A stretch of 32,000 nt of DNA from Horticoccus luteus (lineage in GTDB: Bacteria > Verrucomicrobiota > Verrucomicrobiia > Opitutales > Opitutaceae), in the NCBI RefSeq assembly GCF_019464535.1, contig NZ_CP080507.1, positions 2,460,001 through 2,492,000 on the forward strand. Reading direction: 5' to 3'. Both the position numbers and the translations under genes were made by a program. Below are positions 2,806 to 31,032 of this stretch, piece by piece; positions within the stretch are counted from its first letter, which is position 1; the number at the start of each line of letters is the position of its first letter. The notes beneath the pieces are model-generated. The model was not told the DNA's origin. It did not search any database and saw only the letters and a program-made list of their open reading frames with translations.

Positions 2806-2815
2806 GGCCGCGCGC

Positions 2816-4363: not shown

Positions 4364-4457
4364 GCGTGAGCCCGCCAACGAAAGCCGGCCCGCGCCAAAT
4401 GTCGAAAGTTTTGACGCTGCCCGGAGCGCCCCGCACCCTCGCCGCACTCCCCGCGTC

Positions 4458-6322: not shown

Positions 6323-6329
6323 CGCCCGC

Positions 6330-6944: not shown

Positions 6945-6955
6945 AACGCGCGCCC

Positions 6956-8119: not shown

Positions 8120-8741
8120 ACGGATTGCCCTCCTTCTCGGCGCCCACCGTCGTCGGCTCTCCGTGCCCCGGATAAACCGCGGTCGCGTCGGGCAGCGCAT
8201 AGATCTGCGTGCGGATCGCGTTCTCCAATTGCGCAAAATTTCCGCCCGGCAAATCCGTTCGCCCGATGCTGCCGTTGAACAACGCATCGCCGACAAACGC
8301 CGCCTGGGCCGCGGGCAGATAAAACAACACGTTGCCCGGACAATGCCCCGGCACATGGCGCACCTCAACGTCCATCCCGAGCGCCGCAAACCGCGTCCCC
8401 TGCTCCACCCACTCGTCGACCATCACCGCCTCGAGCTGGAGGCCCGGCATGAGAAACGCGCTCATCACCTCCGGCGTTTCATAAAGCGCACGATCCGCGC
8501 GATGCCCGCGCACCCGCGCCTGCGTGGCCCGCACGACTTCCGCGGCGCCCTGCGTATGGTCCCAATGCCCATGCGTCAGCCAGAGTTCCCGCAACGCGCA
8601 TTTCTCCGTGGCAAGCAGCGGCGCGACGTCCGCCCACACGTTTCCCGGCGCATCGATCAGCACCGCCTCGCCGCGTTCGGGCGCGGTGAGCAGATAAGCA
8701 TTCGTCTGGATCGGACCGGCAGGCAGCACATGCAACGTCAC
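8106..8741 (-). CDS. MBL-fold metallo-hydrolase (glyoxalase II-like)
   Basis: Track ORF 8106..8960. The upstream part reads through REP-like repeats, so I place the start at GTG 8741 (VTLHVLPAGPIQTNAYLL...). HxHxDH motif THGHWDH. 14-nt overlap with the ribD start. The start codon is uncertain. Confidence 0.75.
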   Translation of the reverse strand: MTLHVLPAGPIQTNAYLLTAPERGEAVLIDAPGNVWADVAPLLATEKCALRELWLTHGHWDHTQGAAEVVRATQARVRGHRADRALYETPEVMSAFLMPGLQLEAVMVDEWVEQGTRFAALGMDVEVRHVPGHCPGNVLFYLPAAQAAFVGDALFNGSIGRTDLPGGNFAQLENAIRTQIYALPDATAVYPGHGEPTTVGAEKEGNPYVRG

Positions 8742-8866
8742 GCCGCAGAGTCCACGGGCTTTCGCCGCCACCGCAAACGCGAAAAGCAGCCGACCCGCGC
8801 CCGCCAATCGTTCGCGCCCTCCGCATGGTCCTCGTAATCGCAAGCGTTCTCCCGCCCCCGCCCCGC

Positions 8867-8930
8867 CCTGTGGGTCGGGTGCCCTCACCCGGCATTCCGT
8901 TCCTGTGGGTCGGGTGCCCTCACCCGACAT
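8867..8930. repeat. two adjacent copies of a 29-bp REP-like hairpin motif CCTGTGGGTCGGGTGCCCTCACCCG(G/A)CAT
   Basis: Copies at 8867-8895 and 8902-8930. Stem (T/G)CGGGTG, loop CCCTC, stem CACCCG(A/G). The same motif recurs at 9087, 9269 and 9449 inside the tandem repeat. Confidence 0.85.
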
Positions 8931-9015
8931 CTTCCGTGCCGCTCCCTCTCGCCCTTTCACTCCCCCAACCCGAGAAAGATTAAGATAACGATAACGAGCA
9001 CGATCGCCTAATCCG

Positions 9016-9550
9016 CCCGCTCGTCCCGTTGCGGAACGCGTCAGCGTTTCGCCGTCGCGGCCGCGCTCCGCGCTTCACCTCTCATCCCTGTGGGCCGGGT
9101 GCCCTCACCCGGCATCCTTCCGCGCCCCCCTCGGCTCCTTCAGGTTTCAAGTTTCAGCCTTCAGGTTTCCCTCCTCCGTCCCTCCTTCGCCGTCCACCCG
9201 CTCGTCCCGTAGCGGAACGCGTCAGCGTTTCGCCCGTCGCGGCCGCGCTCCGCGCTTCACCTCTCATCCCTGTGGGCCGGGTGCCCTCACCCGGCATCCT
9301 TCCGCGCCCCCCTCTGCTCCTTCAGGTTTCAAGTTTCAGCCTTCACGTTTCCCTCCTCCGTCCCTCCTTCGCCGTCCACCCGCTCGTCCCGTAGCGGAAC
9401 GCGTCAGCGTTTCGCCGTCGCGGCCGCCCTCCGCGCTTCATCCGCGTCCCTGTGGGTCGGGTGCCCTCACCCGGCATCCTTCCGCGCCCCCCTCTGGCTC
9501 CTTCAGGTTTCAAGTTTCAGCCTTCAGGTTTCCCTCCTCCGTCCGCCCTC
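9016..9550. repeat. tandem repeat, 3 units of ~181 bp
   Basis: Unit starts (CCCGCTCGTCCCGT) at 9016, 9197 and 9379. Each unit holds the hairpin GCGGAACGC-GTCA-GCGTTTCGC, the 29-bp REP-like hairpin, and TCAGGTTTCAAGTTTCAGCCTTCAGGTTTCC. It lies between the MBL gene and the 3' end of intI. Confidence 0.9.
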
Positions 9551-9587
9551 CTCCGTTCGTCCTCCGCCGCCCACCCACCCGCCCCCT

Positions 9588-10952
9588 TCACCCCGCATCC
9601 AGCGGACTCCGCACGCCCAGCCCCGGCTTCTGCATCACATGCGTATAGATCTGCGTCGTCTCCACGCTCTGGTGGCCGAGTAGTTCCTGCACCGTGCGGA
9701 TATCGGTGCCCGCCTCCAGCAGATGCGTCGCAAACGAGTGCCGCAGCACATGCGGCGTCACGCGTTTCGTCATCCCCGCCGCGCCCGCCGCCTTGCGCAC
9801 CGCATTCTGGAACGTCCCGTCGAGGATATGATGTCGCCGCCGCCGCCCCGTCTCCGGGTCCTGCATGAATTCGCGCGACGGCCACAACCACTGCCACTCC
9901 CACGTCATCCCCGCCTTGGGATATTTCCGGGCCAGCCCTTCCGGCAACCACACTCCCGGCGCCTCCGCCGCCCGGTCCTCCGCGAAAATCTCCCGCAGTC
10001 GGGCCAGATGAGCCTCCAGTTTTTCCCGCAGCGATTCCGGCAGCACCGTCAGCCGGTCCTTGTCGCCTTTCCCGCCGTAAACTTTCAATTGCCCGCGCGC
10101 CAGATCCAGGTGGTGCACGCGCAGCCGCAGCAGTTCCATCAGCCGCAGTCCACTGCCATACATCACCTCCGCCATCAGCCGGTAGCCGCGCGGCAATTGG
10201 TCCAGCACCTGCCGCACCTCCGCCTTGCTCAACACTGTCGGTATTCTCTCGCGAGCGCGCGCGCGCCGAAAATCCATTTCCCCCAGATCCAGCCGCAACG
10301 CTTCCTGCATGAAGAACACCAGCGCATTGAGCGCCTGCTTCTGCGTGGACGGCGCTGCCCGTTGTTCCACCGCCAGCGCGGAGAGAAACGCCGCCACGTC
10401 GTCGCCCGACGCCGTCTGAGGCAGACGCGGGGCCAGGAACCGCGCGAACCGCGCCGCCCATGCCCGATACGTCTGCTCCGTGCGCCACAAAAATCCCTTG
10501 CGCCGGATGGCCGTGATCAACGCGCGCTCCCACTCCGCTCCGCCCTGATCCGCCGCCGCCAGCGGCGGCACGGCCGGCCCCGCTCCCGGCCCCGACCGCC
10601 GCGGGTTATCCGCCGGCCGTTGCTCCCCGACCTCCGGCGCCACAAACCCGCGCGCCGCCGGGCGCGTCTTGCCCGCCGCTCTGGCCGCCTTGAAGAGCCA
10701 GGCGAACGCCGCGCGCTCGGCCCGCCGCGCGTTCTCCGTCAAACCGGCACGCGCCAGATGCCAGCGGATGAAACCCGCCGACAGCGGCCGGCCCGTGGCT
10801 TTGCAAGCTCGCAACAATCCTAAAATTGCCCTGACATGCGCCTGCTTCACCTCCGCCGACCATGCGCTCGCCCCGTTCAACACTTCGCCCCACTCCGGAA
10901 ATGACACGATTTCGTCCAGCTTTTGCTCGGTGCGCTCGCCGGCTAAAGCCAT
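9588..10952 (-). CDS. intI: integron integrase (tyrosine recombinase, IntI family) with N-terminal extension
   Basis: Track ORF 9588..11051 starts at a TTG. The first ATG is 10952 (MALAGERTEQ...). The IntI-specific additional segment is present: WLPEGLARKYPKAGMTWEWQWLWPSREFMQDPETGRRRRHHI. Compare IntI1 as I recall it: [21 protein letters not shown]...RRHHM. Catalytic HVLRHSFATHLL, LLGHQSVETTQIYTHV, and the C-terminal GVRSPLD shared with IntI1. Divergent from a plus-strand cassette array. Confidence 0.9.
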   Translation of the reverse strand: MALAGERTEQKLDEIVSFPEWGEVLNGASAWSAEVKQAHVRAILGLLRACKATGRPLSAGFIRWHLARAGLTENARRAERAAFAWLFKAARAAGKTRPAARGFVAPEVGEQRPADNPRRSGPGAGPAVPPLAAADQGGAEWERALITAIRRKGFLWRTEQTYRAWAARFARFLAPRLPQTASGDDVAAFLSALAVEQRAAPSTQKQALNALVFFMQEALRLDLGEMDFRRARARERIPTVLSKAEVRQVLDQLPRGYRLMAEVMYGSGLRLMELLRLRVHHLDLARGQLKVYGGKGDKDRLTVLPESLREKLEAHLARLREIFAEDRAAEAPGVWLPEGLARKYPKAGMTWEWQWLWPSREFMQDPETGRRRRHHILDGTFQNAVRKAAGAAGMTKRVTPHVLRHSFATHLLEAGTDIRTVQELLGHQSVETTQIYTHVMQKPGLGVRSPLDAG

Positions 10953-11143: not shown

Positions 11144-11150
11144 GTTCGGC
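11144..11150 (+). other. attI-side recombination core G|TTCGGC (start of cassette 1)
   Basis: GTTCGGC fits GTTRRRY apart from its fourth base (C). TTCGGC is the exact reverse complement of the R'' box GCCGAA(C) at 11496-11502 at the end of the same cassette. It lies ~190 bp upstream of the intI start in a lower-GC intergenic region. Confidence 0.65.
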
Positions 11151-11495: not shown

Positions 11496-11550
11496 GCCGA
11501 ACTCTGAGCGTTCTGCTGCGCCGTAGCGCGCAGCGGGACGCGGGTTGAAC
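11496..11550 (+). other. 55-bp attC-like imperfect palindrome (copy 1 of 5)
   Basis: GCCGAAC-TCTGAGCGTTCT-GCTGCGC-CGTAGC-GCGCAGC-GGGACGCGG-GTTGAAC. The outer boxes fit RYYYAAC (fourth base G in this copy) and GTTRRRY. Perfect 7-bp central stem plus GCGT/ACGC. Confidence 0.7.
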
Positions 11551-11588
11551 AAGCCCGTTTCGGAGGCGTCCGCGGTTCCGTCCGCCGC

Positions 11589-12992
11589 TTATGCGTTTTG
11601 TATTGGCCGCCAACCGCCGACGGGCGGAGCGCCGGACGGCGGCATCCTTCGCCGCGCGCGGGCGCGCGTGCCGGTGGCGTCTGTTTTCGCCCGCCGAGAG
11701 GGTGTCCGCCACCCGTCACCGGGCTCGCGAGCCGTCTTGCGTCCGTCGCGGCCAAGGCTGCCGCCGGCGGCACGGGGTGCGGGCCGCAATAATATAATAA
11801 GTTGGTCCCTGGTCCTTATACTCATCGCGTGCAGAGGGGCGGCGCCCGGGCCTGCCGCGGCAGCGTGCCCACGCGCACGAGCGTGAACCGTTCGCAGTGC
11901 GGGCAGCGCAAGTGCCAGCGCGGCGCCTCCGGCGGCGGCGCCGCGAGCACGATCGGCTTTTGCAGCAGCGTTTGTGTCCGTTGGCGCCCCGAGGGCACCC
12001 GCCACCGGCCAGCCCTTCGGGCCAACGCCTGCGGCGTTGCCATCTCCGCGCTGTCGCGCTACGTCCACCGTCATCCGGCGGGCGTGCGCCGCCGGGTGCA
12101 GCCAGCCGAAGTAACGCACGCGATGCTGGCCGGCCGGCGGCACGTGCTGCAAATACCGCCGCAGGAACTCTTCCGCGCCGAGCGTGCACTGCCGCCGCTG
12201 CTGCGTCTTCGTGTCGGTATAGTTAAACACCACGCGTTCGTCATCGGCGACGACGAGGCGCTCGTCGCTGATCGCAGTGCGGCTGACGTAGCGCGCGAGA
12301 TAGCGCACGACCGCCTCGCCGCTGCCGGCCGGCTGGCAGTGCACGACCCAACGGCTCCGCCACGTGCCGGCCGGAATCGAAGCGTGCCGCGCCGAAGCGC
12401 TCGCGCGCAGCACCGCCTCCATCCGCCCGCGAAACACTGCCGCCAGCTTCGCCACCGGCAGCAGCCAGTCGCGTTGCCGCGCGTTCACCCATTTATTGCC
12501 GTCGGCGCTGAGCCCGCCGCCGGGCACGATATAATGCACGTGCGGATGATGCTGGAGCTGCCGGCCCCAGGTGTGCAGCACGCCGACGAAGCCGAGTTCC
12601 GCACCGAGCAACCGCCGCTCCGCCGCGACTTGTTGCAACGTCGCCGCGCTCTCGCGGAAGAGCCGGTCGTGCATCAACGCCGGCTCGGCGGCGAAGACCG
12701 CGCGCAGTTCCTGCGGCACGGTGAACGTCACCAAAAAATACGGCACCGGCAGCAGCCGCGCCTCCTGCTGCGCCGTCCACGCCGCGGTGCGCTCGCCGCC
12801 GCAGCGCGGGCAAGCGCGATGGTGACAACTGTGATACGCGAAGTCCGTGCCCGCGCACTCCGTGCAGCGATACACGTGCCCGCCCAAGGCGGGCGTGCGG
12901 CAGCAGCGGATCGCTGCGAGCGCGCGCCGCGCCCGCGGCGCGCAATGCTCCGGCACGCGGGCGCGCGCCAGCCAGTCGGCGAGCACCGACAC
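11589..12992 (-). CDS. tnpA: IS91-family (HUH-Y2) transposase, C-terminus frameshifted relative to copy 3
   Basis: GTG start 3 nt after the recombinase stop. N-terminal zinc-binding region CRTPALGGHVYRCTECAGTDFAYHSCHHRACPRCG, HUH HPHVHYIVPGGG, Y2 motif VVRYLARYVSRTAISDERL. After ...AAHARRMTV the ORF leaves the frame that encodes the conserved CPHC zinc ribbon (that frame is ORF 11822..12043). The last ~110 residues as drawn are Ala/Arg/Gly-rich read-through. Confidence 0.75.
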   Translation of the reverse strand: MSVLADWLARARVPEHCAPRARRALAAIRCCRTPALGGHVYRCTECAGTDFAYHSCHHRACPRCGGERTAAWTAQQEARLLPVPYFLVTFTVPQELRAVFAAEPALMHDRLFRESAATLQQVAAERRLLGAELGFVGVLHTWGRQLQHHPHVHYIVPGGGLSADGNKWVNARQRDWLLPVAKLAAVFRGRMEAVLRASASARHASIPAGTWRSRWVVHCQPAGSGEAVVRYLARYVSRTAISDERLVVADDERVVFNYTDTKTQQRRQCTLGAEEFLRRYLQHVPPAGQHRVRYFGWLHPAAHARRMTVDVARQRGDGNAAGVGPKGWPVAGALGAPTDTNAAAKADRARGAAAGGAALALALPALRTVHARARGHAAAAGPGAAPLHAMSIRTRDQLIILLRPAPRAAGGSLGRDGRKTAREPGDGWRTPSRRAKTDATGTRARARRRMPPSGAPPVGGWRPIQNA

Positions 12993-12995
12993 CGG

Positions 12996-13961
12996 TCAGC
13001 GTGGTTCGAGCAACCGCGCGACCGCCGCGCGAGCGTGGCTCTCGTTGACCGCCGTCAGATGCGTATAGATCAACGTCGTCTCCAGCGAAGCGTGCCCCAG
13101 ATACGCCGAGATCAGCCGGATCGACACGCCCTCCTCGAGCAGATGCGTCGCATACGAATGCCGCAGCGTATGCACCACCGTGCCCGCCGGCAGCCGCGCC
13201 TCGGTCCGCGCCACCCGCAGGCAATGCTGCACCGAACCCACGCCCAGCGGCTCGACGGCGGCGGCCAGGTGCGCCCCGCGCGCCGGTTGCTCGCGCCAGC
13301 CGCGGCCGACCCCCGGGAAAATCCACCGCGGATGCCGGTGCGTCCGCCAGAACGCGCGCAACTCGTGCAACATCGCCTCCGGCAGCGGCACGTAGCGCTC
13401 CTTGTTGCCCTTCGCCTCGCGGATATGCACGCGGCCCGCTTCGCGCAGATCGCGCACCTCCAGGTTGACCGCCTCGCCGATGCGCAATCCGCACGCGTAG
13501 ATCAACCGCAGCAGTGTGCGGAAACGCGGCACCCGCACCACCGCGAACAGCCGCGCCACCTCTGCCCGCGTGAGCACGGTGGGAAGTTTTTGCGCTGACG
13601 GTGAGCGCACCAGATCGAACAGCTTCCAGTCGCGCCCGAGGTGCACGCCGAAGTAGGCCCGCATCGCCGCCACCGCGGTTCGCATCGACGAGGGCGAGTA
13701 GTGGTGTTCGTCCTTCAACCGCAGCAGATGCGCGCGGACCGCGGCCTCATCGAGCGCGGCCGGATCGCCCCCGTGGCGCGCCGCCAGCTTGCGGACAAAC
13801 CGCAGATACTCGGCCTGCGTCGCCGCCGCCAGCGAACGCAGCCGCATCGTCTCCGCGAAACGCTGCACCGACTCCGGATCGGGTGCGTGGATCTTCCTGG
13901 CGCCACCCCGCAGCGTGGACGCGTGCGTGGACTCTCTTCCCGTCGATTTTGATTTGGGCAT
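12996..13961 (-). CDS. tyrosine recombinase/integrase (element-borne)
   Basis: 321 aa with ATG at 13961. Catalytic constellation visible: GLRIGEA (R), KGNKERY (K), [12 protein letters not shown] (HxxR), LGHAS (H), LIYTHL (Y). SAM-like N-terminal domain ([13 protein letters not shown]). Confidence 0.88.
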
Positions 13962-14062
13962 AGACCCGCAGCCTTGCCAGCCACCGCCCTCCCGCCCATC
14001 CTTCCGCTCGTGCCCCGCCCCGCACTATATACACCCGCTCACCCCCGCCGCGCAGCGGCTTG

Positions 14063-14154
14063 GTTCAACCAGTCGCTACAGCGCAACGCCTCGACGGGGT
14101 CCGTTTCGAGTTTGGAGTCGCCAGCTCGGCGTGGCTGACCAGTGATCGTTGGGC
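14063..14154 (+). other. attC-type site (92 bp) GTTCAAC-CAG...GATC-GTTGGGC
   Basis: R''-like GTTCAAC (or native AAC only, see findings), imperfectly complementary arms, R' GTTGGGC at 14148-14154 followed 8 nt later by the next cassette's ATG. Confidence 0.65.
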
Positions 14155-14162
14155 AAAGAAAG

Positions 14163-14618
14163 ATGAGCACCATTTCGGTTACGCGCATCGCTGCGAATTT
14201 TAAGCCGACCGTGAATTATCCGCGGCTCGCGCTCGTGCACGATGGCCGGCGAGCACTCCTTTATTTCACTGGCCGACGGCAGCGCGGCGCCGAAGAAGAA
14301 AGAGCCGTCGCGGTATTCGAGGGCTGCTTGGCATCGCGGTTCGGTTACCCGAACGATGAAGCCCTGCCGGGTCATCCGCTGTATCGCTACGGTCTCGGCG
14401 ATTATGATTTCTTTGAAGTTTCGTCATCTCCGTGGATGGAAGAAGTCAGAGCCCAGAATCGCGTGTCATTCCCAAAGTTCGACATGCCTGCCAGAAAGCA
14501 TTTCATCGTGACCGCTCACGACGAAAGTTTTGAGTGCCTCGCAGATTCGGTAGCCGTTCATCCAGCATCCTCTTTTCCAGTTGAGCATTTGGCTCCACGT
14601 ATTTCCGCCGTCGAATGA
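14163..14618 (+). CDS. cassette ORF, hypothetical protein
   Basis: Track ORF 14142..14618 starts at a GTG inside the core site. ATG 14163 is preferred (MSTISVTRIAANFK...). 151 aa. Cassette start TTGGGC (14149) is complementary to R'' GCCCAAC (14623). Confidence 0.6.
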   Translation: MSTISVTRIAANFKPTVNYPRLALVHDGRRALLYFTGRRQRGAEEERAVAVFEGCLASRFGYPNDEALPGHPLYRYGLGDYDFFEVSSSPWMEEVRAQNRVSFPKFDMPARKHFIVTAHDESFECLADSVAVHPASSFPVEHLAPRISAVE

Positions 14619-14622
14619 AAAG

Positions 14623-14677
14623 GCCCAACTCTGAGCGTTCTGCTGCGCCGTAGCGCGCAGCGGGACGCGGGTTGAAC
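14623..14677 (+). other. 55-bp attC-like imperfect palindrome (copy 2 of 5)
   Basis: GCCCAAC...GTTGAAC, identical core to copy 1. Confidence 0.7.
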
Positions 14678-14715
14678 AAGCCCATTTCGAACGCGTCCGC
14701 GGTTCCGTCCGCCGC

Positions 14716-16119
14716 TTATGCGTTTTGTAGTGGCCGCCGACCGCCGATGGGCGGAGCGCCGGACGGCGGTATCCTTCGCCGGTCGCGGGCGCACGTGCCG
14801 GTAGCGTCTGTTTTCGTCCGCCGAGAGGGTGCCCGCCACCCTTCACCGGGCTCGCGAGCCGTCTTGCGTCGGTCGCGGCCAAGGCTGCCGCCGGCGGCAC
14901 GGGGAGCGAGTCGCAATAATATAAGAAGTTGGTCCCTGATCTTTATACTCATCGCTGGCAAAGGGGCGGCGCTCGCGCCTGCCGCGGCAGCGTGCCCACG
15001 CGCACGAGCGTGAAGCGTTCGCAGTGCGGACAACGCAAGTGCCAGCGCGGCGCCTCCGGCGGCGGCGCCGCGAGCACGATCGGCTTTTGCAGCAGCGTTT
15101 GTGTCCGTTGGCGCCCCGAGGGCACCCGCCATCGGCCAGCCCTTCGGGCCAACGCCTGCGGCGTTGCCATCTCCGCGCTGTCGCGCTACGTCCACCGTCA
15201 TCCGGCGGGCGTGCGCCGCCGGGTGCAACCAGCCGAAGTAACGCACGCGATGCTGGCCGGCCGGCGGCACGTGCTGCAAATACCGCCGCAGGAACTCTTC
15301 CGCGCCGAGCGTGCACTGCCGCCGCTGCTGCGTCTTCGTGTCGGTATAGTTAAACACCACGCGTTCGTCATCGGCGACGACGAGGCGCTCGTCGCTGATC
15401 GCAGTGCGGCTGACGTAGCGCGCGAGATAGCGCACGACCGCCTCGCCGCTGCCGGCCGGCTGGCAGTGCACGACCCAACGGCTCCGCCACGTGCCGGCCG
15501 GAATCGAAGCGTGCCGCGCCGGAGCGCTCGCGCGCAGCACCGCCTCCATCCGCCCGCGAAACACTGCCGCCAGCTTCGCCACCGGCAGCAGCCAGTCGCG
15601 TTGCCGCGCGTTCACCCATTTTTTGCCGTCGGGGCTGAGCCCGCCGCCGGGCACGATATAATGCACGTGCGGATGATGCTGGAGCTGCCGGCCCCAGGTG
15701 TGCAGCACGCCGACGAAGCCGAGTTCCGCACCGAGCAACCGCCGCTCCGCCGCGACTTGTTGCAACGTCGCCGCGCTCTCGCGGAAGAGCCGGTCGTGCA
15801 TCAACGCCGGCTCGGCGGCGAAGACCGCGCGCAGTTCCTGTGGCACGGTGAACGTCACCAAAAAATACGGCACCGGCAGCAGCCGCGCCTCCTGCTGCGC
15901 CGTCCACGCCGCGGTGCGCTCGCCGCCGCAGCGCGGACACGCCCGATGGTGACAACTGTGATACGCGAAGTCCGTGCCCGCGCACTCCGTGCAGCGATAC
16001 AAGTGCCCGCCCAAGGCGGGCGTGCGGCAGCGGCGGATCGCTGCGAGCGCGCGCCGCGCCCGCGGCGCGCAACGCTCCGGCACGCGGGCGCGCGCCAGCC
16101 AGTCGGCGAGCACCGACAC
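14716..16119 (-). CDS. tnpA: IS91-family (HUH-Y2) transposase, same frameshifted C-terminus as copy 1
   Basis: 467-aa ORF near-identical to 11589..12992. The zinc-ribbon C-terminus is in another frame (ORF 14949..15170). Confidence 0.75.
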   Translation of the reverse strand: MSVLADWLARARVPERCAPRARRALAAIRRCRTPALGGHLYRCTECAGTDFAYHSCHHRACPRCGGERTAAWTAQQEARLLPVPYFLVTFTVPQELRAVFAAEPALMHDRLFRESAATLQQVAAERRLLGAELGFVGVLHTWGRQLQHHPHVHYIVPGGGLSPDGKKWVNARQRDWLLPVAKLAAVFRGRMEAVLRASAPARHASIPAGTWRSRWVVHCQPAGSGEAVVRYLARYVSRTAISDERLVVADDERVVFNYTDTKTQQRRQCTLGAEEFLRRYLQHVPPAGQHRVRYFGWLHPAAHARRMTVDVARQRGDGNAAGVGPKGWPMAGALGAPTDTNAAAKADRARGAAAGGAALALALSALRTLHARARGHAAAAGASAAPLPAMSIKIRDQLLILLRLAPRAAGGSLGRDRRKTAREPGEGWRAPSRRTKTDATGTCARDRRRIPPSGAPPIGGRRPLQNA

Positions 16120-16122
16120 CGG

Positions 16123-17088
16123 TCAGCGTGGTTCGAGCAACCGCGCGACCGCCGCGCGAGCGTGGCTCTCGTTGACCGCCGTCAGATGCGTATAGATCAA
16201 CGTCGTCTCCAGCGAAGCGTGCCCCAGATACGCCGAGATCAGCCGGATCGACACGCCCTCCTCGAGCAGATGTGTCGCATACGAATGCCGCAGCGTATGC
16301 ACCACCGTGCCCGCCGGCAGCCGCGCCTCGGTCCGCGCCAGCCGCAGGCAATGCTGCACCGAGCCCACGCCCAGCGGCTCGACGGCGGCCGCCAGTTGCG
16401 CCGCACGCGCCGGTTGCTCGCGCCAGCCGCGGCCGACCCCCGGGAAAATCCACCGCGGATGCCGGTGCGTCCGCCAGAACGCGCGCAACTCGTGCAACAT
16501 CGCCTCCGGCAGCGGCACATAACGCTCCTTGTTGCCCTTCGCCTCGCGGATATGCACGCGACCCGCCTCGCGCAGATCGCGCACCTCCAGGTTGACCGCC
16601 TCGCCGATGCGCAATCCGCACGCGTAGATCAACCGCAGCAGCGTGCGAAACCGCGGCACCCGCACGACCGCGAACAGCCGCGCCACCTCTGCCCGCGTGA
16701 GCACGGTGGGAAGTTTTTGCGCTGACGGTGAGCGCACCAGATCGAACAGCTTCCAGTCGCACCCGAGGTGCACGCCGAAGTAAGCCCGCATCGCCGCCAC
16801 TGCGGTTCGCATCGACGAAGGCGAGTAGTGGTGTTCGTCCTTCAACCGCAGCAGATGCGCGCGGACCGCGGCCTCCTCGAGCGCGGCCGGATCGCCCCCG
16901 TGGCGCGCCGCCAGCTTGCGGACAAACCGCAGATACTCGGCCTGCGTCGCCGCCGCCAGCGAACGCAGCCGCATCGTCTCCGCGAAACGCTGCACCGACT
17001 CCGGATCGGGTGCGTGGATCTTCCTGGCGCCACCCCGGAGCGTGGACGCGTGCGTGGACTCTCTTCCCGTCGATTTTGATTTGGGCAT
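16123..17088 (-). CDS. tyrosine recombinase/integrase (element-borne)
   Basis: Track ORF 16123..17145, trimmed to ATG 17088 ([11 protein letters not shown]...) by homology with copies 1 and 3. Confidence 0.88.
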
Positions 17089-17189
17089 AGACCCGCAGCC
17101 TTGCCAGCCACCGCACTCCCGCCCATCCTTTCGCCCGTGCCCCACTCCGCACTATATACACCCGCCCACCCCCGCCGCGCAGCGGCTTG

Positions 17190-17255
17190 GTTCAACCAGG
17201 CGGCACAGCCAACGCCGGGGCTGCGCCCCAGCGTGGCTGACTGCTGACGATGGGC
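17190..17255 (+). other. attC-type site (66 bp) GTTCAAC-CAG...GAC-GATGGGC
   Basis: Arms CAGGCGGCACAGCCAACGCCGGGG / CCCCAGCGTGGCTGACTGCTG are imperfectly complementary with bulges. Closely related to the intact attC at 17673-17739. Confidence 0.7.
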
Positions 17256-17263
17256 GAGGAAAG

Positions 17264-17665
17264 ATGATCTCAGCGATACGCACCGCCTTTCGCACTTGGA
17301 CTCCGTGGGAGGAAGCTCTCACGAGTGCCGTGCTTTCAAAGCTTGGTCCCAAGACGCAGAGCATACTTCGCACGCAGCTCGCCGCCGTGAATAAGGTTCA
17401 GCGCATCCTCGGCTGGCGGGAGATCGACCTCTACGTGAAGAAGAAAGGAAGAGTTGATCGAAGCGGTCTGCCGACTCTCTTTGATGATCGTGAGTTTGTG
17501 CTAGCGAAGGCGGTCACGAAGGTGGACGGAGTGAAATTTTATACGACGGTCACCTGCGTCGGCGGCTATTTGTTTTCGTTCGAGAGCGACACGGAAGTTC
17601 GTCGCTTCGCATTCCGAGATGATTGCGAGATTGAGGTGCTAGAGTTTGATTCCCGCTACGCATGA
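17264..17665 (+). CDS. cassette ORF, hypothetical protein
   Basis: Track ORF 16916..17665, trimmed to ATG 17264 (MISAIRTAFRTW...), 8 nt after core G|ATGGGC. 133 aa. The upstream part of the track ORF is antisense read-through of the mobile unit. Confidence 0.6.
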   Translation: MISAIRTAFRTWTPWEEALTSAVLSKLGPKTQSILRTQLAAVNKVQRILGWREIDLYVKKKGRVDRSGLPTLFDDREFVLAKAVTKVDGVKFYTTVTCVGGYLFSFESDTEVRRFAFRDDCEIEVLEFDSRYA

Positions 17666-17672
17666 AAACGGA

Positions 17673-17739
17673 GCCCATCCAGAGCATCACAGACAACGGC
17701 CGGGCTGCGCCCGGTCGTGTCTGACTGCTGACGTTAGGC
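17673..17739 (+). other. uninterrupted attC (67 bp) GCCCATC-CAG...GAC-GTTAGGC
   Basis: R'' GCCCATC is the complement of this cassette's start (G)ATGGGC. Arms CAGAGCATCACAGACAACGGCCGGG / CCCGGTCGTGTCTGACTGCTG pair with bulges. R' GTTAGGC. This is the only cassette junction in the array without foreign DNA. Confidence 0.8.
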
Positions 17740-17745
17740 AAAGAA

Positions 17746-18141
17746 ATGAGCATCGATTTGATCGTGCCTTTGGTTGAGCAGGTCGTCGACGGGCAGCGGG
17801 ACGAAAGCGAAGGCACTTTCTTTTCCTATCGGCATGCGCAGGAGATTCACGCTTTAGGAGTGAAGCACGAGTTCACTTCGGGGTCCTCGTGGTCTCAGGT
17901 ATGCGTCAGTGTCGTAGTCAGCTCCGCGCTCACACCGAAGATTTGGGTGCGAATTCTGTGGTCGCGACCGAAGCTCGAATACCCGAAAGAAGAAAGTATG
18001 CCATGGGAGTTTCCACTGTCGGAGGTAGGCGTTCGCATGTTCGCGAAGGAGTGGCCGGGAATTCGGACGCAGCTAGGACAAGCGATCGCAAGAGGTCGTC
18101 CTCCAGAAAAGCCTAACTCTGAGCGTTCTGCTGCGCCGTAG
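17746..18141 (+). CDS. cassette ORF, hypothetical protein
   Basis: 131 aa. ATG 6 nt after GTTAGGC. The reading frame runs through R'' GCCTAAC (18111) and stops 24 nt into the 55-bp palindrome. Confidence 0.55.
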   Translation: MSIDLIVPLVEQVVDGQRDESEGTFFSYRHAQEIHALGVKHEFTSGSSWSQVCVSVVVSSALTPKIWVRILWSRPKLEYPKEESMPWEFPLSEVGVRMFAKEWPGIRTQLGQAIARGRPPEKPNSERSAAP

Positions 18142-18165
18142 CGCGCAGCGGGACGCGGGTTGAAC
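18111..18165 (+). other. 55-bp attC-like imperfect palindrome (copy 3 of 5)
   Basis: GCCTAAC...GTTGAAC. R'' is complementary to the cassette start TTAGGC (17734). Confidence 0.7.
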
Positions 18166-18436
18166 AAGCCCGTTTCGAAGGCGTCCGCGGTTCCGTCCGC
18201 CGCTTATGCGTTTTGTAGTGGCCTCCGACCGCCGATGGGCGGAGCGCCGGACGGCGGCATCCTTCGCCGGTCGCGGGCGCACGTGCCGGTAGCGTCCGTT
18301 TTCGCCCGCCGAGAGGGAGTCCGCCACCCGTCACCGGGGGCGCGAGCCGTCTTGCGTCGGTCGCGGCCAAGGCTGCCGCCGGCGGCACGGGGCGCGGGCC
18401 GCAATAATATAATAAGTTGGTCCCTGATCTTTATAC

Positions 18437-19516
18437 TCATCGCTGGCAAAGGGGCGGCGCTCGCGCCTGCCGCGGCAGCGTGCCCACGCGCACGAGCGTG
18501 AACCGTTCGCAGTGCGGACAACGCAAGTGCCAGCGCGGCGCCTCCGGCGGCGGCGCCGCGAGCACGATCGGCTTTTGCAGCAGCGTCTCCACCGTCATCC
18601 GGCGGGCGTGCGCCGCCGGGTGCAACCAGCCGAAGTAACGCACGCGATGCTGGCCGGCCGGCGGCACGTGCTGCAAATACCGCCGCAGGAACTCTTCGGC
18701 GCCGAGCGTGCACTGCCGCCGCTGCTGGGTCTTCGCATCGGTATAGTTAAACACCACGTGTTCGTCATCGGCGACGACGAGGCGCTCGTCGCTGATCGCA
18801 GTGCGACTGACGTAGCGCGCGAGATAGCGCACGACCGCCTCGCCGCTGCCGGCCGGCTGGCAGTGCACGACCCAACGGCTCCGCCACGTGCCGGCCGGAA
18901 TCAAAGCGTGCCGCGCCGGAGCGCTCGCGCGCAGCACCGCCTCCATCCGCCCGCGAAACACCGCCGCCAGCTTCGCCACCGGCAGCAGCCAGTCGCGTTG
19001 CCGCGCGTTCACCCATTTATTGCCGTCGGCGCTGAGCCCGCCGCCGGGCACGATATAATGCACGTGCGGATGATGCTGGAGCTGCCGGCCCCAGGTGTGC
19101 AGCACGCCGACGAAGCCGAGTTCCGCACCGAGCAACCGCCGCTCCGCCGCGACTTGTTGCAACGTCGCCGCGCTCTCGCGGAAGAGCCGGTCGTGCATCA
19201 ACGCCGGCTCGGCGGCGAAGACCGCGCGCAGTTCCTCCGGCACGGTGAACGTCACCAAAAAATACGGCACCGGCAGCAGCCGCGCCTCCTGCTGCGCCGT
19301 CCACGCCGCGGTGCGCTCGCCGCCGCAGCGCGGACAAGCGCGATGGTGACAACTGTGATACGCGAAGTCCGTGCCCGCGCACTCCGTGCAGCGATACACA
19401 TGCCCGCCCAAGGCGGGCGTGCGGCAGCGGCGGATCGCTGCGAGCGCGCGCCGCGCCCGCGGCGCGCAACGCTCCGGCACGCGGGCGCGCGCCAGCCAGT
19501 CGGCGAGGACCGACAC
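18437..19516 (-). CDS. tnpA: IS91-family (HUH-Y2) transposase, single uninterrupted ORF including C-terminal zinc ribbon
   Basis: 359 aa with the same N-terminal, HUH and Y2 motifs. The C-terminus ...AAHARRMTVETLLQKPIVLAAPPPEAPRWHLRCPHCERFTLVRVGTLP is in frame. Confidence 0.85.
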   Translation of the reverse strand: MSVLADWLARARVPERCAPRARRALAAIRRCRTPALGGHVYRCTECAGTDFAYHSCHHRACPRCGGERTAAWTAQQEARLLPVPYFLVTFTVPEELRAVFAAEPALMHDRLFRESAATLQQVAAERRLLGAELGFVGVLHTWGRQLQHHPHVHYIVPGGGLSADGNKWVNARQRDWLLPVAKLAAVFRGRMEAVLRASAPARHALIPAGTWRSRWVVHCQPAGSGEAVVRYLARYVSRTAISDERLVVADDEHVVFNYTDAKTQQRRQCTLGAEEFLRRYLQHVPPAGQHRVRYFGWLHPAAHARRMTVETLLQKPIVLAAPPPEAPRWHLRCPHCERFTLVRVGTLPRQARAPPLCQR

Positions 19517-19519
19517 CGG

Positions 19520-20485
19520 TCAGCGCGGTTCGAGCAACCGCGCGACCGCCGCGCGAGCGTGGCTCTCGTTGACCGCCGTCAGATGCGTATAGATCAACGT
19601 CGTCTCCAGCGAAGCGTGCCCCAGATACGCCGAGATCAGCCGGATCGACACGCCCTCCTCGAGCAGATGCGTCGCATACGAATGCCGCAGCGTATGCACC
19701 ACCGTGCCCGCCGGCAGCCGCGCCTCGGTCCGCGCCAGCCGCAGGCAATGCTGCACCGAGCCCACGCCCAGCGGCTCGACGGCGGCCGCCAGTTGCGCCG
19801 CGCGCGCCGGTTGCTCGCGCCAGCCGCGGCCGACCCCCGGGAAAATCCACCGCGGATGCCGGTGCGTCCGCCAGAACGCGCGCAACTCGTGCAACATCGC
19901 CTCCGGCAGCGGCACGTAGCGCTCCTTGTTGCCCTTCGCCTCGCGGATATGCACGCGGCCCGCTTCGCGCAGATCGCGCACCTCGAGGTTGACCGCCTCG
20001 CCGATGCGCAATCCGCACGCGTAGATCAACCGCAGCAGTGTGCGGAAACGCAACTCGCGCACCACCGCGAACAGCCGCGCCACCTCTGCCCGCGTGAGCA
20101 CCGTGGGCAGCTTTTGCGCCGACGGCGAACGCACCAGATCGAACAGCTTCCAGTCGCGCCCGAGGTGCAGGCCGAAGTAGGCCCGCATCGCCGCCACCGC
20201 GGTTCGCATCGACGAGGGCGAGTAGTGGTGTTCGTCCTTCAACCGCAGCAGATGCGCGCGGACCGCGGCCTCATCGAGCGCGGCCGGATCGCCGCCGTGG
20301 CGCGCCGCCAGCTTGCGGACAAACCGCAGATACTCGGCCTGCGTCGCCGCCGCCAGCGAACGCAGCCGCATCGTCTCCGCGAAACGCTGCACCGACTCCG
20401 GATCGGGTGCGTGGATCTTCCTGGCGCCACCCCGGAGCGTGGACGCGTGCGTGGACTCTCTTCCCGTCGATTTTGATGTGGGCAT
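19520..20485 (-). CDS. tyrosine recombinase/integrase (element-borne)
   Basis: 321 aa, near-identical to 12996..13961. ATG at 20485. Confidence 0.88.
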
Positions 20486-20586
20486 AGACCCGCAGCCTTG
20501 CCAGCCACCGCACTCCCGCCCATCCTTCCGCCCGTGCCCCGCCCCGCACTATATACACCCGCTCACCCCCGCCGCGCAGCGGCTTG

Positions 20587-20647
20587 GTTCAACCAGGCGC
20601 TACAGCCAACGGCCGCAGCCGGCCGTGGCTGATCTCGAACGTTGGGC
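20587..20647 (+). other. attC-type site (61 bp) GTTCAAC-CAG...GAAC-GTTGGGC
   Basis: Central stem CGGCC-GCA-GCCGGCCG, flanked by CAGGCGCTACAGCCAA / GTGGCTGATCTCG. R' GTTGGGC at 20641. Confidence 0.65.
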
Positions 20648-21158: not shown

Positions 21159-21213
21159 GCCCAACTCTGAGCGTTCTGCTGCGCCGTAGCGCGCAGCGGG
21201 ACGCGGGTTGAAC
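21159..21213 (+). other. 55-bp attC-like imperfect palindrome (copy 4 of 5)
   Basis: GCCCAAC...GTTGAAC. R'' is complementary to the cassette start TTGGGC (20642). Confidence 0.7.
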
Positions 21214-21263
21214 AAGCCCGTTCCGAAGGCAGCAGGAGCGTCGACCGCCGCTTATGCGTTTTG

Positions 21264-21675
21264 GATAAAGCCACAAAACCGCACGCCTTGACTCTAGACA
21301 AACGAAGCGAATAGCGGCACTCCCGCCCGAGCACGTTGCACACGCCAAGTTTCCAAGCTCGACGAAAGACGTTTCGCATTGCTCTCGCCATCCGCATCTT
21401 GCGCAACGTCTTCTCCAAGCCCCCCCGGTCTGAACTCCCCTGTCCATACACGCGCAACTCGCCTTCGCGGCTGCCTTCAGCTGTCGCTATCGTGATTGTA
21501 TCTTTGTGGACATCCAAGCCCACGTATCTTTGCTTGAGCTTCATGTGCTTGCCTCTGGTTTTGGTTGTTTCGGTTACACGCCACACCCCTGCGGATCGGC
21601 GCTCTTCGAGCGTAACCCGCGTTCACCAAAGACAAACACCCACTTCGCTTTCCGCTCCTTCATCGCAGCTATAAT
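21264..21675 (-). mobile_element. degenerate IS110-family footprint A
   Basis: Homologous to 22607-23006. Retains the transposase 5' region and the first ~50 codons. Ends at ...CATCGCAGCTATAAT, 2 nt before the next cassette's core-like CCTAGGC. Confidence 0.7.
21395..21544 (-). pseudogene. IS110-family (DEDD) transposase N-terminal remnant
   Basis: From ATG 21544: MKLKQRYVGLDVHKDTITIATAEGSREGELRVYGQGSSDRGGLEKTLRKM, the canonical IS110 N-terminus (VG[IL]DV[HS]K). The rest of the ~350-aa enzyme is missing. The lower coordinate is approximate. Confidence 0.7.
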
Positions 21676-21690
21676 ACCTAGGCAACAATT

Positions 21691-22182: not shown

Positions 22183-22514
22183 AGCCGCTAGGCAGAAACA
22201 GAAATATGAAGCGCCTATTCCTGCGTTGGTTTTTCTGCGGCACGCCCGCTGAATACGAAGAGGGGAAGCAAATTCACTTCTCCGAACTGAAGGTATATCG
22301 GAAGCGTTGGTATTACATTGCGGGCCTTGTGCTCACCGTTCTTCCTCTCGTTTATCTGATTCGGCAATACGACTCATGGGAGGTTTGGATGTGTGTCTTG
22401 TCTGTCGCTATCGGAAATATGCTGATTCGCGATACCATTTCCGAGCATTACGTTGTGAAGCTCCTGCGCTCTAGGCGCCCAACAGATGTAATTAGAAATG
22501 AAAAAGAAGCCTAA
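22179..22514 (+). CDS. cassette ORF, small membrane protein (2 TM)
   Basis: 111 aa. ATGA overlap with the preceding ORF. TM helices YYIAGLVLTVLPLVYLI and VWMCVLSVAIGNMLI. The stop TAA lies inside R'' GCCTAAC. Confidence 0.55.
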   Translation: MKPLGRNRNMKRLFLRWFFCGTPAEYEEGKQIHFSELKVYRKRWYYIAGLVLTVLPLVYLIRQYDSWEVWMCVLSVAIGNMLIRDTISEHYVVKLLRSRRPTDVIRNEKEA

Positions 22515-22563
22515 CTCTGCGCGTTCTGCTGCGCCGTAGCGCGCACGGGGACGCGGGTTGAAC
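22509..22563 (+). other. 55-bp attC-like imperfect palindrome (copy 5 of 5, most diverged)
   Basis: GCCTAAC-TCTGCGCGTTCTGCTGCGCCGTAGCGCGCACGGGGACGCGG-GTTGAAC. R'' is complementary (5 of 6) to CTAGGC at 21678. Confidence 0.65.
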
Positions 22564-22606
22564 CAGCCCGGGACGAAGGCGGCCGCGGCTTCGGCCGCCG
22601 ATTATG

Positions 22607-23006
22607 TAGAAAGCCATCCAACCGCATGCCTTGACTATTGACCACCGAAGCGAATTTCGGGCACCTCTGCCCGAACACGCGAAACACGCCAATTTTCCGA
22701 GTGCGAGGCGAGACGTTCGCGTTGCGCCCTTGAACCAGATCGTGCGCGACGTCGTCTCCAAGACTCGCAGGTTTGAACTCCCCTGTCCCTCCACGCGCAA
22801 CTTGCCTTCCGCCGTCGCTATCGTGATCGCATCTTTGTGGACATCCAGGCCCACGTATCTTTGTTTGAGCTTCATGTGCTTGCCTCCGGTTTTGGTTGTA
22901 TCGGTTACACGCCACACCCCTGCGGATCGGCGCTCTTCGAGCGTAACCCGCGTTTACCAAGGACAAGCACCCTCCTCGCTTTCCGCTCCTTCATCGCAGC
23001 TATAAT
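22607..23006 (-). mobile_element. degenerate IS110-family footprint B
   Basis: Diverged copy of footprint A with small indels. Ends at the same ...CATCGCAGCTATAAT. Confidence 0.7.
22738..22875 (-). pseudogene. IS110-family transposase N-terminal remnant
   Basis: From ATG 22875: MKLKQRYVGLDVHKDAITIATAEGKLRVEGQGSSNLRVLETT..., then no further homology. The lower coordinate is approximate. Confidence 0.65.
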
Positions 23007-23021
23007 GCCCCGGTAAAATCG

Positions 23022-23507
23022 ATGATCGCCATTCACTGCAGCTTGATGTTCGTCGGCACATATTACTTTGCGGCGATCATTCAGACGTTGCTCCACCGAA
23101 TCTTCGGCCATCACGACCGCATTCGAAAGGTGTACGAGACGCATGCGAAGGGCCATCACGGAAAGTATCCGCCACATCGCCTGATTGCTGACGAGTGGTT
23201 GGACAGCGAGCAGCATGTGATGTGGTATTACGCAATTCCATTTGTCCCTGTGGCGCTATTGGTCGCGTGGCTTTTGGGGACGTGGCTTTTCTTGAGCCAC
23301 GTAGCTGCGATGGCGTTCGCGATCTGGTGGCACATCTATCTCCACAAGCAGTATCACCTCAGAGGTAGCGTTTGGGAGAGGTTCCAGTGGTTTAGGACGA
23401 AGCGCGAACTGCACTTCATCCACCATCGCGAGGTCCATAGGAATTACGCCATAGTCGAATACTGGATCGATGTTTTTCTCGGCACGCGCAAAGAGCCGAA
23501 CCAGTAA
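23022..23507 (+). CDS. small membrane protein with histidine boxes (fatty-acid hydroxylase / sterol desaturase-like superfamily)
   Basis: 161 aa. HRIFGHH, KGHHGKY, HIYLHKQYH and HFIHHREVH clusters between hydrophobic segments. No attC follows it. Confidence 0.5.
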   Translation: MIAIHCSLMFVGTYYFAAIIQTLLHRIFGHHDRIRKVYETHAKGHHGKYPPHRLIADEWLDSEQHVMWYYAIPFVPVALLVAWLLGTWLFLSHVAAMAFAIWWHIYLHKQYHLRGSVWERFQWFRTKRELHFIHHREVHRNYAIVEYWIDVFLGTRKEPNQ

Positions 23508-23577
23508 ACCTAAAACCAAAACCCCATGTCTTGACTCTTGACCCACGAAGTAGTGAACGGCGGTAGATCCCTTCGCC
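23508..23577 (-). mobile_element. partial IS110-family footprint C (transposase-distal end only)
   Basis: AACCTAAAACCAAAACCCCATGTCTTGACTCTTGACCCACGAAGTAGTG... aligns with 21268-21335 (AAGCCACAAAACCGCACGCCTTGACTCTAGACAAACGAAGCGAAT) and 22611-22680. Confidence 0.5.
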
Positions 23578-23597: not shown

Positions 23598-24803
<1,206 letters not shown>

Positions 24804-24838
24804 CGCCCGCCGCCCCGCGCCGCCGTCGTTCGCGCAAC

Positions 24839-27352: not shown

Positions 27353-27453
27353 TCCCCGGCCTGCGCGTGGCCGGGGTTCATCGTCCCCGCCGCCAATTCC
27401 CCTCTTGCTAACGCCCCGGCCGCCCTGTGTCTTCGTGATTTTCTGCCATCGCC

Positions 27454-30180: not shown

Positions 30181-30192
30181 CCGCCGGCCCCC

Positions 30193-30915: not shown

Positions 30916-31032
30916 GGCTTCCGCCCGCCGGCGTCTCCGCCCGCGCACACCAAAAGTTCGCCGCGGCCCCGCACGCGCAACCACGCGCGCTTCGCTCTCG
31001 CGGCGCGACCTCAGCCAGGGCCCTCCGCGGCT

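Follow-up and report, generated by a model that had tools for sequence, protein, structure and literature searches.

Three antisense units in an integron cassette array

What are three long units that lie at the same position of three different attC sites in one integron, each carrying two genes antisense to the surrounding cassettes? The question is raised by a 32,000-nucleotide (nt) stretch of the Horticoccus luteus chromosome (Opitutaceae, Verrucomicrobiota; contig NZ_CP080507.1, positions 2,460,001 to 2,492,000), hereafter the window, which contains a complete chromosomal integron. The units (U1, U2 and U3, Table 1) had been delimited in an initial annotation, and a re-reading of the sequence bore out their coordinates, their lengths of 2567, 2567 and 2476 bp, the strings at the junctions and the core heptamers. 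The three units do occupy matching attC positions. However, they are not the near-identical copies that had been described, as their pairwise identity is 97.3%, with 64-68 substitutions each.

We put the probability at about 85% that each unit is an autonomous insertion sequence (IS) from the recombinase-carrying branch of the IS91 family which is specialised on integron attC sites. Insertion is exactly between R'' (RYYYAAC) and the CAG of a resident attC, with the genes invariably in antisense orientation relative to the cassettes. Along its genes, a unit consists of GTTGAAC, 3-5 nt, the palindrome GCCGC-N3-GCGGC, a recombinase gene, a coupled gene for an HUH-Y2 transposase (tnpA), a spacer and an oriIS-like end, the last being made up of GGGCTTGTTCAAC, an imperfect hairpin of ~42 nt and CTCAGA.

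The units are insertions into attC

Two readings of these units had been put forward at the outset. In the first a unit is a forward integron cassette bounded at G/TTGAAC (a slash marks the joint here and below), and in the second it has inserted between the AAC of R'' and the following CAG, bringing its own hairpin. The second reading is borne out by seamless empty sites, by the sides on which the stems are conserved or vary, and by junctions across genomes. Removal of a unit, with its left flank joined to its right flank, yields GCCSAAC/CAG...CAGCCAACG...CGTGGCTGA...GTTRRRY. The sites reconstructed in this way align column by column, across the joint too, with three intact attCs, namely the one at 17673-17739 of the window and those of two loci from other genomes (L026 and L003). 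A covariance model of attC (R1) was built from the reconstructed and intact sites and covers one local attC type only; in the window it finds four sites only, which are the intact attC and the three right-hand hybrids. There is no target-site duplication, the empty sites being seamless and the AAC being shared between the R'' of the target and the end of the element.

Right of the units, the attC stems are unrelated sequences of 48-79 nt, whereas the left-hand hairpin of 42 nt does not differ between the three units and is conserved across genomes. Since a cassette carries its own attC, a forward cassette would be expected to have the opposite pattern, and it is therefore the insertion reading that holds. 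Nor are the boundaries of a unit those of a cassette, as they lie at the R'' of the resident attC, the hairpin is array-proximal and the unit is inverted.

In most copies AAC is present at both the target R'' and the right end of the element, which leaves the joint ambiguous by 3 nt. Two junctions are informative here. At L008, where the target R'' is GCCGATC, the target keeps ATC and the element AAC, and L017:5513 is flanked by TTTGGGC. From these two junctions the joint can be put at AAC/ (possibly AA/C) on the window plus strand. Dozens of independent insertions in other genomes have the same geometry, so that the three-fold pattern of the window is not due to chance.

An IS91-style cleavage at GTTC/ inside the hairpin and at GGTTC/AAC was also considered. 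It would fit 14-nt duplications seen in L006 and L036, but for normal insertion it is contradicted by the junctions of L008. The duplications themselves are tandem and lie at the hairpin-side junction (L006 7601-7628, 14 nt; L036 ~2863-2890, 14 nt; L013 4017-4036, 20 nt). In one example GAACCCTCAGAGTT is present twice. All of them resemble the first 11-17 nt of the bottom strand of the element, joined to AAC, and aberrant cleavage or a deletion within a tandem pair may have left them behind.

Relatives occupy the same position in other genomes

One genome per species was scanned for relatives, and 80 loci were returned. Approximately 50 copies share the 5' terminus GTTGAAC-(3 nt)-AGCCGC-N3-GCGGC, i.e. 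GTTGAAC..AGCCGCNNNGCGGC, in which the subterminal palindrome lies 10 nt from the upstream end. Their hosts belong to the Opitutaceae, Verrucomicrobiae, Planctomycetota, Betaproteobacteria and Bacteroidota. Upstream of this terminus the flanks are variable and mostly attC-like, ending in ...GTTGGCTNNNGCGNCTG/. The attC model gave 64 matches in the loci of the relatives, every one of them (64/64) on the strand opposite the recombinase gene, and 26 of the 64 end exactly 10 nt inside the 5' end of an element.

In the close clade, the end past tnpA reads GGGCTTGTTCAAC-hairpin-CTCAGA/GTTNGGC, where GTTNGGC is the complement of the target R''. All 22 hairpins of this clade are preceded solely by the element's own GGGCTTGTTCAAC and none by a foreign R'', which already contradicts a forward cassette bounded at G/TTGAAC. 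A more distant clade (L029, L030, L034 and L047-L049), with a recombinase identity of 44-51% and a different, longer hairpin, has the same layout and the same /GTTAGGC flank; one contig of a metagenome-assembled genome in this clade carries at least five copies. Bona fide intI genes lie beside elements of this clade in L048 (415 bits) and L038 (409 bits, TIGR02249), co-oriented with the element genes as in the window.

The two readings also differ in the junction that joined ends should leave. For an inserted element it is CGCTCAGA/GTTGAACC on the element sense strand, whereas the circle junction expected of a forward cassette is GGCTTGG-TTGAACAAGCC. Metagenome contigs were scanned for the pattern predicted from insertion, and it was matched in L086 and L087. 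Including these, the head-to-tail junction hairpin-CTCAGA/GTTGAAC is present in four contigs. The other two, L035 and L040, are short and have terminal overlaps of 119 and 85 nt; their units measure 2490 and 2484 bp, with the hairpin end lying directly against the 5' end. Assembly breakpoints also agree with the element boundaries, three contigs beginning exactly at GTTGAAC and one ending in ...CTCAGAGTT. In L087 a full-length element lies directly against the 5' end of a gene-less element of 293 bp (1364-1656), which has both family ends and is inserted at the /GTTAGGC of an attC. The presence of this miniature in an attC indicates that the ends suffice for mobilisation in trans. Because the left hybrid site (...CTG/GTTGAAC) is re-usable, not only circles but also tandem insertions may underlie the head-to-tail junctions.

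The terminal hairpin and the element ends

In an alignment of 15 distinct versions of the terminal hairpin, 95.6% of the cells of the 14-bp stem are paired. Five pairs have changed on both sides (27 cells), a level of covariation that was reached in none of 500 shuffles. DNA folding of U1 places the stem at 11508-11521 and 11528-11541, with the loop CGTAGC, and the R'-like GTTGAAC lies at 11544-11550 in the left inverted repeat GTTGAACAAGCC. Two conserved T.G wobbles on the window plus strand would turn into C.A mismatches if the opposite strand folded instead, and the folding energy of the joined ends is -27 kcal/mol for the plus strand versus -23 kcal/mol for the minus strand. Taken together, the wobbles and the folding energies point to the strand that is 'bottom' relative to tnpA as the one that folds.

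The terminal inverted repeats, GGCTTGGTTCAAC and GTTGAACAAGCC, are 12-13 bp long. The right repeat of U1 terminates in an R''-like GTTCAAC, and when the two repeats are joined they close a hairpin with this heptamer and the R'-like GTTGAAC, in agreement with the earlier proposal that the termini form an R'/R'' core pair. A further argument, that both of the classical IS91 target tetranucleotides (GAAC and CAAG) sit at the left junction, leans on a motif that varies within the family: of the left inverted repeat only GTTGAAC is conserved, and the CAAG is not. The upstream palindrome would be the functional terIS and the downstream hairpin the functional oriIS.

The two enzymes

Each unit had been said to carry two antisense genes 3 nt apart, and the Pfam and NCBIfam profiles agree (PF14319, PF04986 and PF00589 all match). 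The order is the TGA of the recombinase, CCG and the GTG of the transposase, and among relatives the two genes are adjacent and co-oriented in 73/83 scorable cases. The recombinase is a protein of 321 amino acids (aa), encoded on the minus strand, with domains PF13495 and PF00589. Its catalytic residues (R, K, H-x-x-R, H and Y), all of which had been recognised from the start, are invariant in 12 sequences down to 33% identity. The best NCBIfam match is to the integron-integrase model TIGR02249, at 162 bits, which is below the cutoff of 265 and split in two; XerD scores 140. The protein has a gap where the IntI-specific extra segment aligns, and the solved structure nearest to it by sequence is 4a8e, deposited as a probable XerC-like (XerA-type) protein, ahead of IntI4. 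Judged from sequence, by the TIGR02249 cutoff and the test for the extra domain, the recombinase is Xer-like and not an IntI. Differences between the copies of its gene amount to 16 synonymous and 5 non-synonymous, and the gene is under purifying selection. The recombinase of U3 is identical to the H. luteus protein P0002, and further H. luteus copies are P0001 and P0004.

The transposase matches PF14319 (E=2.6e-26), PF04986 (E=2.1e-55) and NF033538 (360 bits, cutoff 125), and both the HUH (HVH) and the double-tyrosine (YLARY) motifs are present. U3 is 91 bp shorter than the other two. The 91-bp segment of U1 and U2 is exactly missing in relatives from other genomes, and only U3 retains the native C-terminus of tnpA with its CPHC motif (359 aa, compared with 355-368 aa in relatives). 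Therefore, the difference in length reflects an insertion in U1 and U2 and not a deletion in U3. Owing to the frameshift that it causes, some 150 codons at the end of the 467-aa tnpA open reading frame (ORF) of U1 and U2 are not real, and the insert also accounts for the ratio of 10 synonymous to 26 non-synonymous differences between the tnpA copies.

Comparison with known systems

With the IS91 family (IS91, IS801 and IS1294) the units share the Zn-binding and Y2 transposase domains, the NCBIfam IS91 model being passed. They also share two distinct ends, with a terIS-like palindrome upstream and a larger oriIS-like palindrome after tnpA, the lack of a target duplication and a bottom strand that folds. 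The oriIS-side flank ends in a GAAC-like tetranucleotide, which resembles the IS91 target, 5'-GTTC or CTTG (GAAC or CAAG on the other strand), without being the same. IS91 itself has a terIS palindrome beside the cleavage tetranucleotide, oriIS palindromes beside the target tetranucleotide and no target duplication, and its bottom-strand circle has been reported as a functional and active intermediate (PMC13181058). The units differ from this family in four respects. They encode a tyrosine recombinase that is catalytically intact by its residues and translationally coupled to tnpA, they have terminal inverted repeats of 12-13 bp which form an R''/R' pair, their target is a fixed position of a structured attC of ~60-130 nt and not four bases, and their flank is [GCT]AAC instead of GAAC or CAAG.

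Recombinase-carrying relatives of IS91 are catalogued in ISfinder and TnPedia (the ISAzo26, ISWz1 and ISSod25 type). The units are like these in having the recombinase gene directly upstream of an IS91-type tnpA. In the searchable literature no description of an attC-specific IS91 lineage or clade was found, the only hint being a remark on a Shewanella integron in which the IS91-like element ISShvi3 lay 'adjacent to an attC site' (PMC9229058).

IS1111-attC elements (ISPa21 and ISPst6) target attC near its 5' end and are antisense to the cassettes, whilst group IIC-attC introns are also attC-specific, antisense and near the 5' side of attC, and can block Pc-driven transcription (PMC3001079). 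The architecture of the units had been considered distinct from both, and so it is. The units have no DEDD (IS110-family) transposase, and the IS1111-attC group has no HUH enzyme, tyrosine recombinase or attC-like terminal hairpin. Group IIC-attC introns, unlike the units, are retroelements with a ribozyme and a reverse transcriptase, and a search of the whole window against Rfam at the gathering threshold gave no match, including none to a group II intron. There is also a likeness to integron cassettes with their IntI and to the CTX phage, which XerCD integrates in single-stranded form; these have in common with the units a folded single-strand hairpin, R-box-like heptamers, a recombinase of the Xer/IntI kind and a joint at or beside an AAC/GTT triplet. 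However, unlike in the IntI system, the joint is at R'' on the top strand of the array and not at R' on the bottom strand, and a rolling-circle transposase is also encoded.

A possible route of transposition

By analogy with IS91, the Y2 transposase would nick after ...AAC on the oriIS side and after GGTTCAAC on the terIS side, freeing a bottom-strand circle. This circle would then be joined, right after AAC, to the attC strand that carries RYYYAAC, which is the array's top strand. Written in bottom-strand notation, the element reads NAAC/[hairpin ... GCCGCGCAGCGGC-TTGGTTCAAC]/, with the AAC of R'' in the role of the GAAC of IS91. The recombinase would recognise the folded element end and the folded attC top strand, and might carry out strand exchange as well, in a mirror image of the IntI reaction, which uses the other strand and R'.

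The IS91 scheme does not account for the confinement to one position of a structured site, for the R-box-like repeats at the termini or for the conservation of the recombinase. On balance we lean slightly towards a recombinase that supplies recognition of attC and hairpin, and possibly strand exchange at the R-box-like repeats; a transposase that acts alone as the joining enzyme is possible. The complete two-enzyme, single-strand route, in which the Y2 transposase peels off a bottom-strand circle whose attC-mimicking end is recombined by the recombinase with the attC top strand at R'', is a tentative proposal and probably not the correct one.

Alternative explanations

Of the other explanations, the one that survives best is an inverted integron cassette, although it is very unlikely. 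Here the hairpin would be the attC of the unit, the host IntI would have inserted the unit backwards at R'' and both genes would be cargo. The minus strand does offer formal cassette boundaries (G/TTGAAC ... GTTCAAC-hairpin-G/TTSGGC) with R boxes that fit the RYYYAAC and GTTRRRY consensus, and a functional-looking intI is adjacent here, in L038 and in L048. However, IntI has a strong preference for the bottom strand and for R', and an antisense orientation in 68/68 cases would demand a systematic reversal of this strand rule. The joint at L017:5513 is also one base off the G/TT of IntI, and the host attC model does not recognise the hairpin. Moreover, cargo status fits poorly with two catalytically intact enzymes, with the purifying selection on the recombinase gene and with a family that extends down to 33% identity, some relatives of which are found on plasmids without integrons.

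Ordinary IS91 behaviour, in which the target is just a GAAC-like tetranucleotide and the accumulation of copies in this array is a coincidence, is more improbable again. The flank of U1 is indeed GAAC and an IS91-family element needs a tetranucleotide target only, yet the window has many GAAC and NAAC sites and every copy is at the AAC of an attC R''. Position and orientation recur, moreover, in at least 26 model-verified attCs of other genomes, and again in a clade of only ~45% recombinase identity.

Least credible is a forward 2.6-kb cassette that runs from TTGAAC (11545) to GTTCAAC plus a variable stem, with the hairpin as the attC of the preceding ORF cassettes, for although TTGAAC complements the unit's own GTTCAAC, as in the ORF cassettes, and the right hybrid sites score as full attCs (60-72 bits), five unrelated ORF cassettes would need an identical 42-nt stem and three 97%-identical units would need three unrelated stems of 48-79 nt, the hairpin elsewhere always moves with the element while the other flank varies, and both the head-to-tail junctions and the 293-bp miniature have the boundaries of an inserted element. 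The scores of the right hybrids suggest that IntI might process these sites secondarily.

An attC-specialised, recombinase-carrying IS is thus preferred, but several observations count against it. Around 9 of 46 scorable 5' flanks are not attC-like (e.g. L062, L010, L036, L031 and L052), and remoter relatives are present outside integrons, on rhizobial (Sinorhizobium meliloti pSymA) and Herpetosiphon (pHAU01) plasmids. The flanking tetranucleotides, which in bottom-strand notation are GAAC, CAAC, TAAC, GATC and CAAA, only resemble the IS91 targets GAAC and CAAG. The hairpin of the joined ends was not recognised by attC model R1, which represents one local attC type, even at E=10, so that 'attC-like' refers to architecture and R-box heptamers only. 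None of the observations shows movement in the H. luteus genome, the three copies being 2.7% apart and two of the tnpA genes disrupted. The head-to-tail junctions could be tandems and not circles, as tandems do occur in L087. Finally, from the sequence the transposase alone and the host IntI are also candidates for the joining enzyme.

The plasmid relatives have a recombinase identity of 33-42% and lie outside integrons, in which they differ from the units, whilst their ends are built similarly. In the S. meliloti copy (L081, 3200-3500) and the Herpetosiphon copy (L082, 3206-3490 and 5470-6220) the 5' ends are GTTGGAC or ATTGAAC, i.e. (G/A)TTG(G/A)AC, followed by a palindrome. The Herpetosiphon copy also has a 3' inverted repeat and hairpin, and its two flanks together form a small palindrome, ATAAC-AATC/GTTAT. 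The wider family may generally target hairpins just 5' of GTT. A search of plasmid DNA with a whole unit returned only short tnpA segments, at ~70% identity, from rhizobial and sphingomonad IS91 copies.

Implications for integrons

To our knowledge, only two kinds of mobile element home to attC, the IS1111-attC elements and the group IIC-attC introns. The units look like a third, apparently undescribed class of attC-specific integron parasite, an attC-targeting, recombinase-carrying element of the IS91 family that is widespread in Verrucomicrobiota and beyond. A third unrelated lineage on the same side of attC and in the same antisense orientation would show strong convergence on a structured single-strand site, and it raises the question of whether recognition and cutting of attC can take place on the top strand at R''. 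The family is a natural test of the role of the tyrosine recombinase in recombinase-carrying IS91 elements. It is also a new target for integron annotation tools; at present the units will be taken for giant cassettes or will break arrays.

Insertion splits an attC into two hybrid sites, and 2.5 kb of antisense genes between cassettes should affect the excision of cassettes as well as their expression. IS91 relatives are well known for mobilising resistance genes that lie next to them, and IS91-type elements read through terIS, picking up adjoining DNA. A speculative corollary of such read-through is that these elements could furnish neighbouring genes with an attC-like hairpin and thereby have a part in the origin of cassettes. 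Should the two-enzyme route be true, this would be the first transposon that couples rolling-circle excision to hairpin-specific tyrosine recombination.

The integron and its other features

The window has a G+C content of 66%, and the integron is flanked by a ribD-like gene on one side and an isopropylmalate-dehydrogenase-like gene on the other. Cassette ORFs occupy the plus strand from 11144 to ~23500 (Table 1). The first six bases of each cassette complement its own R'' (TTCGGC with GCCGAAC, TTGGGC with GCCCAAC, ATGGGC with GCCCATC and TTAGGC with GCCTAAC).

Table 1. Positions of the integron features, the three units and the solo ends in the window.
Feature	Position	Strand	Remarks
intI, integron integrase	9588-10952	minus	TIGR02249 380 bits (cutoff 265), residues 147-453; Pfam domains
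attI/cassette-1 boundary, G/TTCGGC	11144-11150	plus	Complements cassette 1's own R'' GCCGAAC; read from sequence
R'' GCCGAAC of cassette-1 attC	11496-11502	plus	Cut off from the remaining attC by U1
U1, 2567 bp	11503-14069	minus	Recombinase gene 12996-13961; tnpA 11589-12992, frameshifted by 91-bp insert 11972-12063
U1 oriIS-side terminal module	11503-11555	plus	Spacer TCTGA, imperfect hairpin, R'-like GTTGAAC within repeat GTTGAACAAGCC
U1 terIS-side terminus	14047-14069	plus	Palindrome GCCGC-GCA-GCGGC (14047-14059), then right inverted repeat GGCTTGGTTCAAC (14057-14069)
Rest of cassette-1 attC (CAG...GTTGGGC)	14070-14154	plus	attC model match 14059-14158, 59.7 bits
U2 target R'' GCCCAAC	14623-14629		Directly left of U2
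U2, 2567 bp	14630-17196	minus	Recombinase gene 16123-17088; tnpA 14716-16119; 91-bp insert 15099-15190
Rest of cassette-2 attC (CAG...GATGGGC)	17197-17255	plus	attC model 72.1 bits
Sole uninterrupted attC of the window (GCCCATC/CAG...GTTAGGC)	17673-17739	plus	75.1 bits; empty-site reference
U3 target R'' GCCTAAC	18111-18117		Directly left of U3
U3, 2476 bp, canonical intact copy	18118-20593	minus	Recombinase gene 19520-20485; tnpA 18437-19516, 359 aa
Rest of cassette-4 attC (CAG...GTTGGGC)	20594-20647	plus	attC model 71.7 bits
Solo oriIS-side module (hairpin, GTTGAAC, ~55 nt)	21166-21266	minus	After R'' GCCCAAC (21159-21165); family D4, 86%
Second solo oriIS-side module	22516-22616	minus	After R'' GCCTAAC (22509-22515); 73%

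The ORF of IntI has 454 aa and the integron-integrase model begins only at residue 147. The first ~146 aa are either an N-terminal extension rich in Ala, Arg and Pro, or the true start codon lies further in. Directly downstream of intI, and touching its 3' end, a unit of 181-182 bp is present in three tandem copies (9012-9596). A scan of U1 for sigma-70-type promoters found no site, and the early suggestion that the antisense units shield downstream cassettes from the integron promoter is a conjecture. The cassette-4 ORF (17746-18141) continues past its R'' and 24 nt into U3 before it reaches a stop. In the reconstructed empty site its stop would be the TGA in the L' box of the attC, so that insertion has altered the C-terminus of that protein.

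Plus-strand GC skew is around -0.2 at 1-10000 and 24000-32000, whatever the direction of the genes, and is weaker (-0.05 to -0.1) inside the cassette array. As the skew is negative, the attC bottom strands are on the G-rich strand. The idea that an HUH element might target attC top strands because they are on the lagging-strand template was therefore dropped, the skew of -0.2 in the flanks putting the top strand on the C-rich strand.

The small insert of U1 and U2 recurs in this IS family at ~91-112 bp (L021 ~3054-3165 and ~6621-6732, L026 ~3505-3620 and L027 ~4751-4857). It is in tnpA here and in the recombinase gene in the other genomes, and is always gene-oriented and always after GGA or CGA. 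The ends are conserved (5' CG[GT]AGCGCGNCAGCGCGGAGATGG, 3' ...CACAA), and a comparison of the 91-bp insert with Rfam at a permissive threshold gave chance-level matches only. Possible identities are a miniature mobile element and an intron-like insert.

Besides the units, the window contains two solo oriIS-side modules, both with neither genes nor a right end, so that the left end is present five times in all. Each solo hairpin end is followed by ~430 bp up to the start of the next cassette (21166-21690 and 22516-23021 in total). On the minus strand these segments encode the start of an IS110-family transposase, ~50 codons in length (MKLKQRYVGLDVHKD...), and the IS110-like remnants (21267-21690 and 22617-23021) are separate from the units. 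A short related stretch lies at 23505-23560, after the R''-CAG of the last cassette, and a full-length relative of the IS110-like gene is found in a cassette array from the Opitutae (L003 2927-4318). The solo ends and the IS110-like stretches may go back to an IS1111-attC-like element and to deletions between that element and an IS91-type unit.

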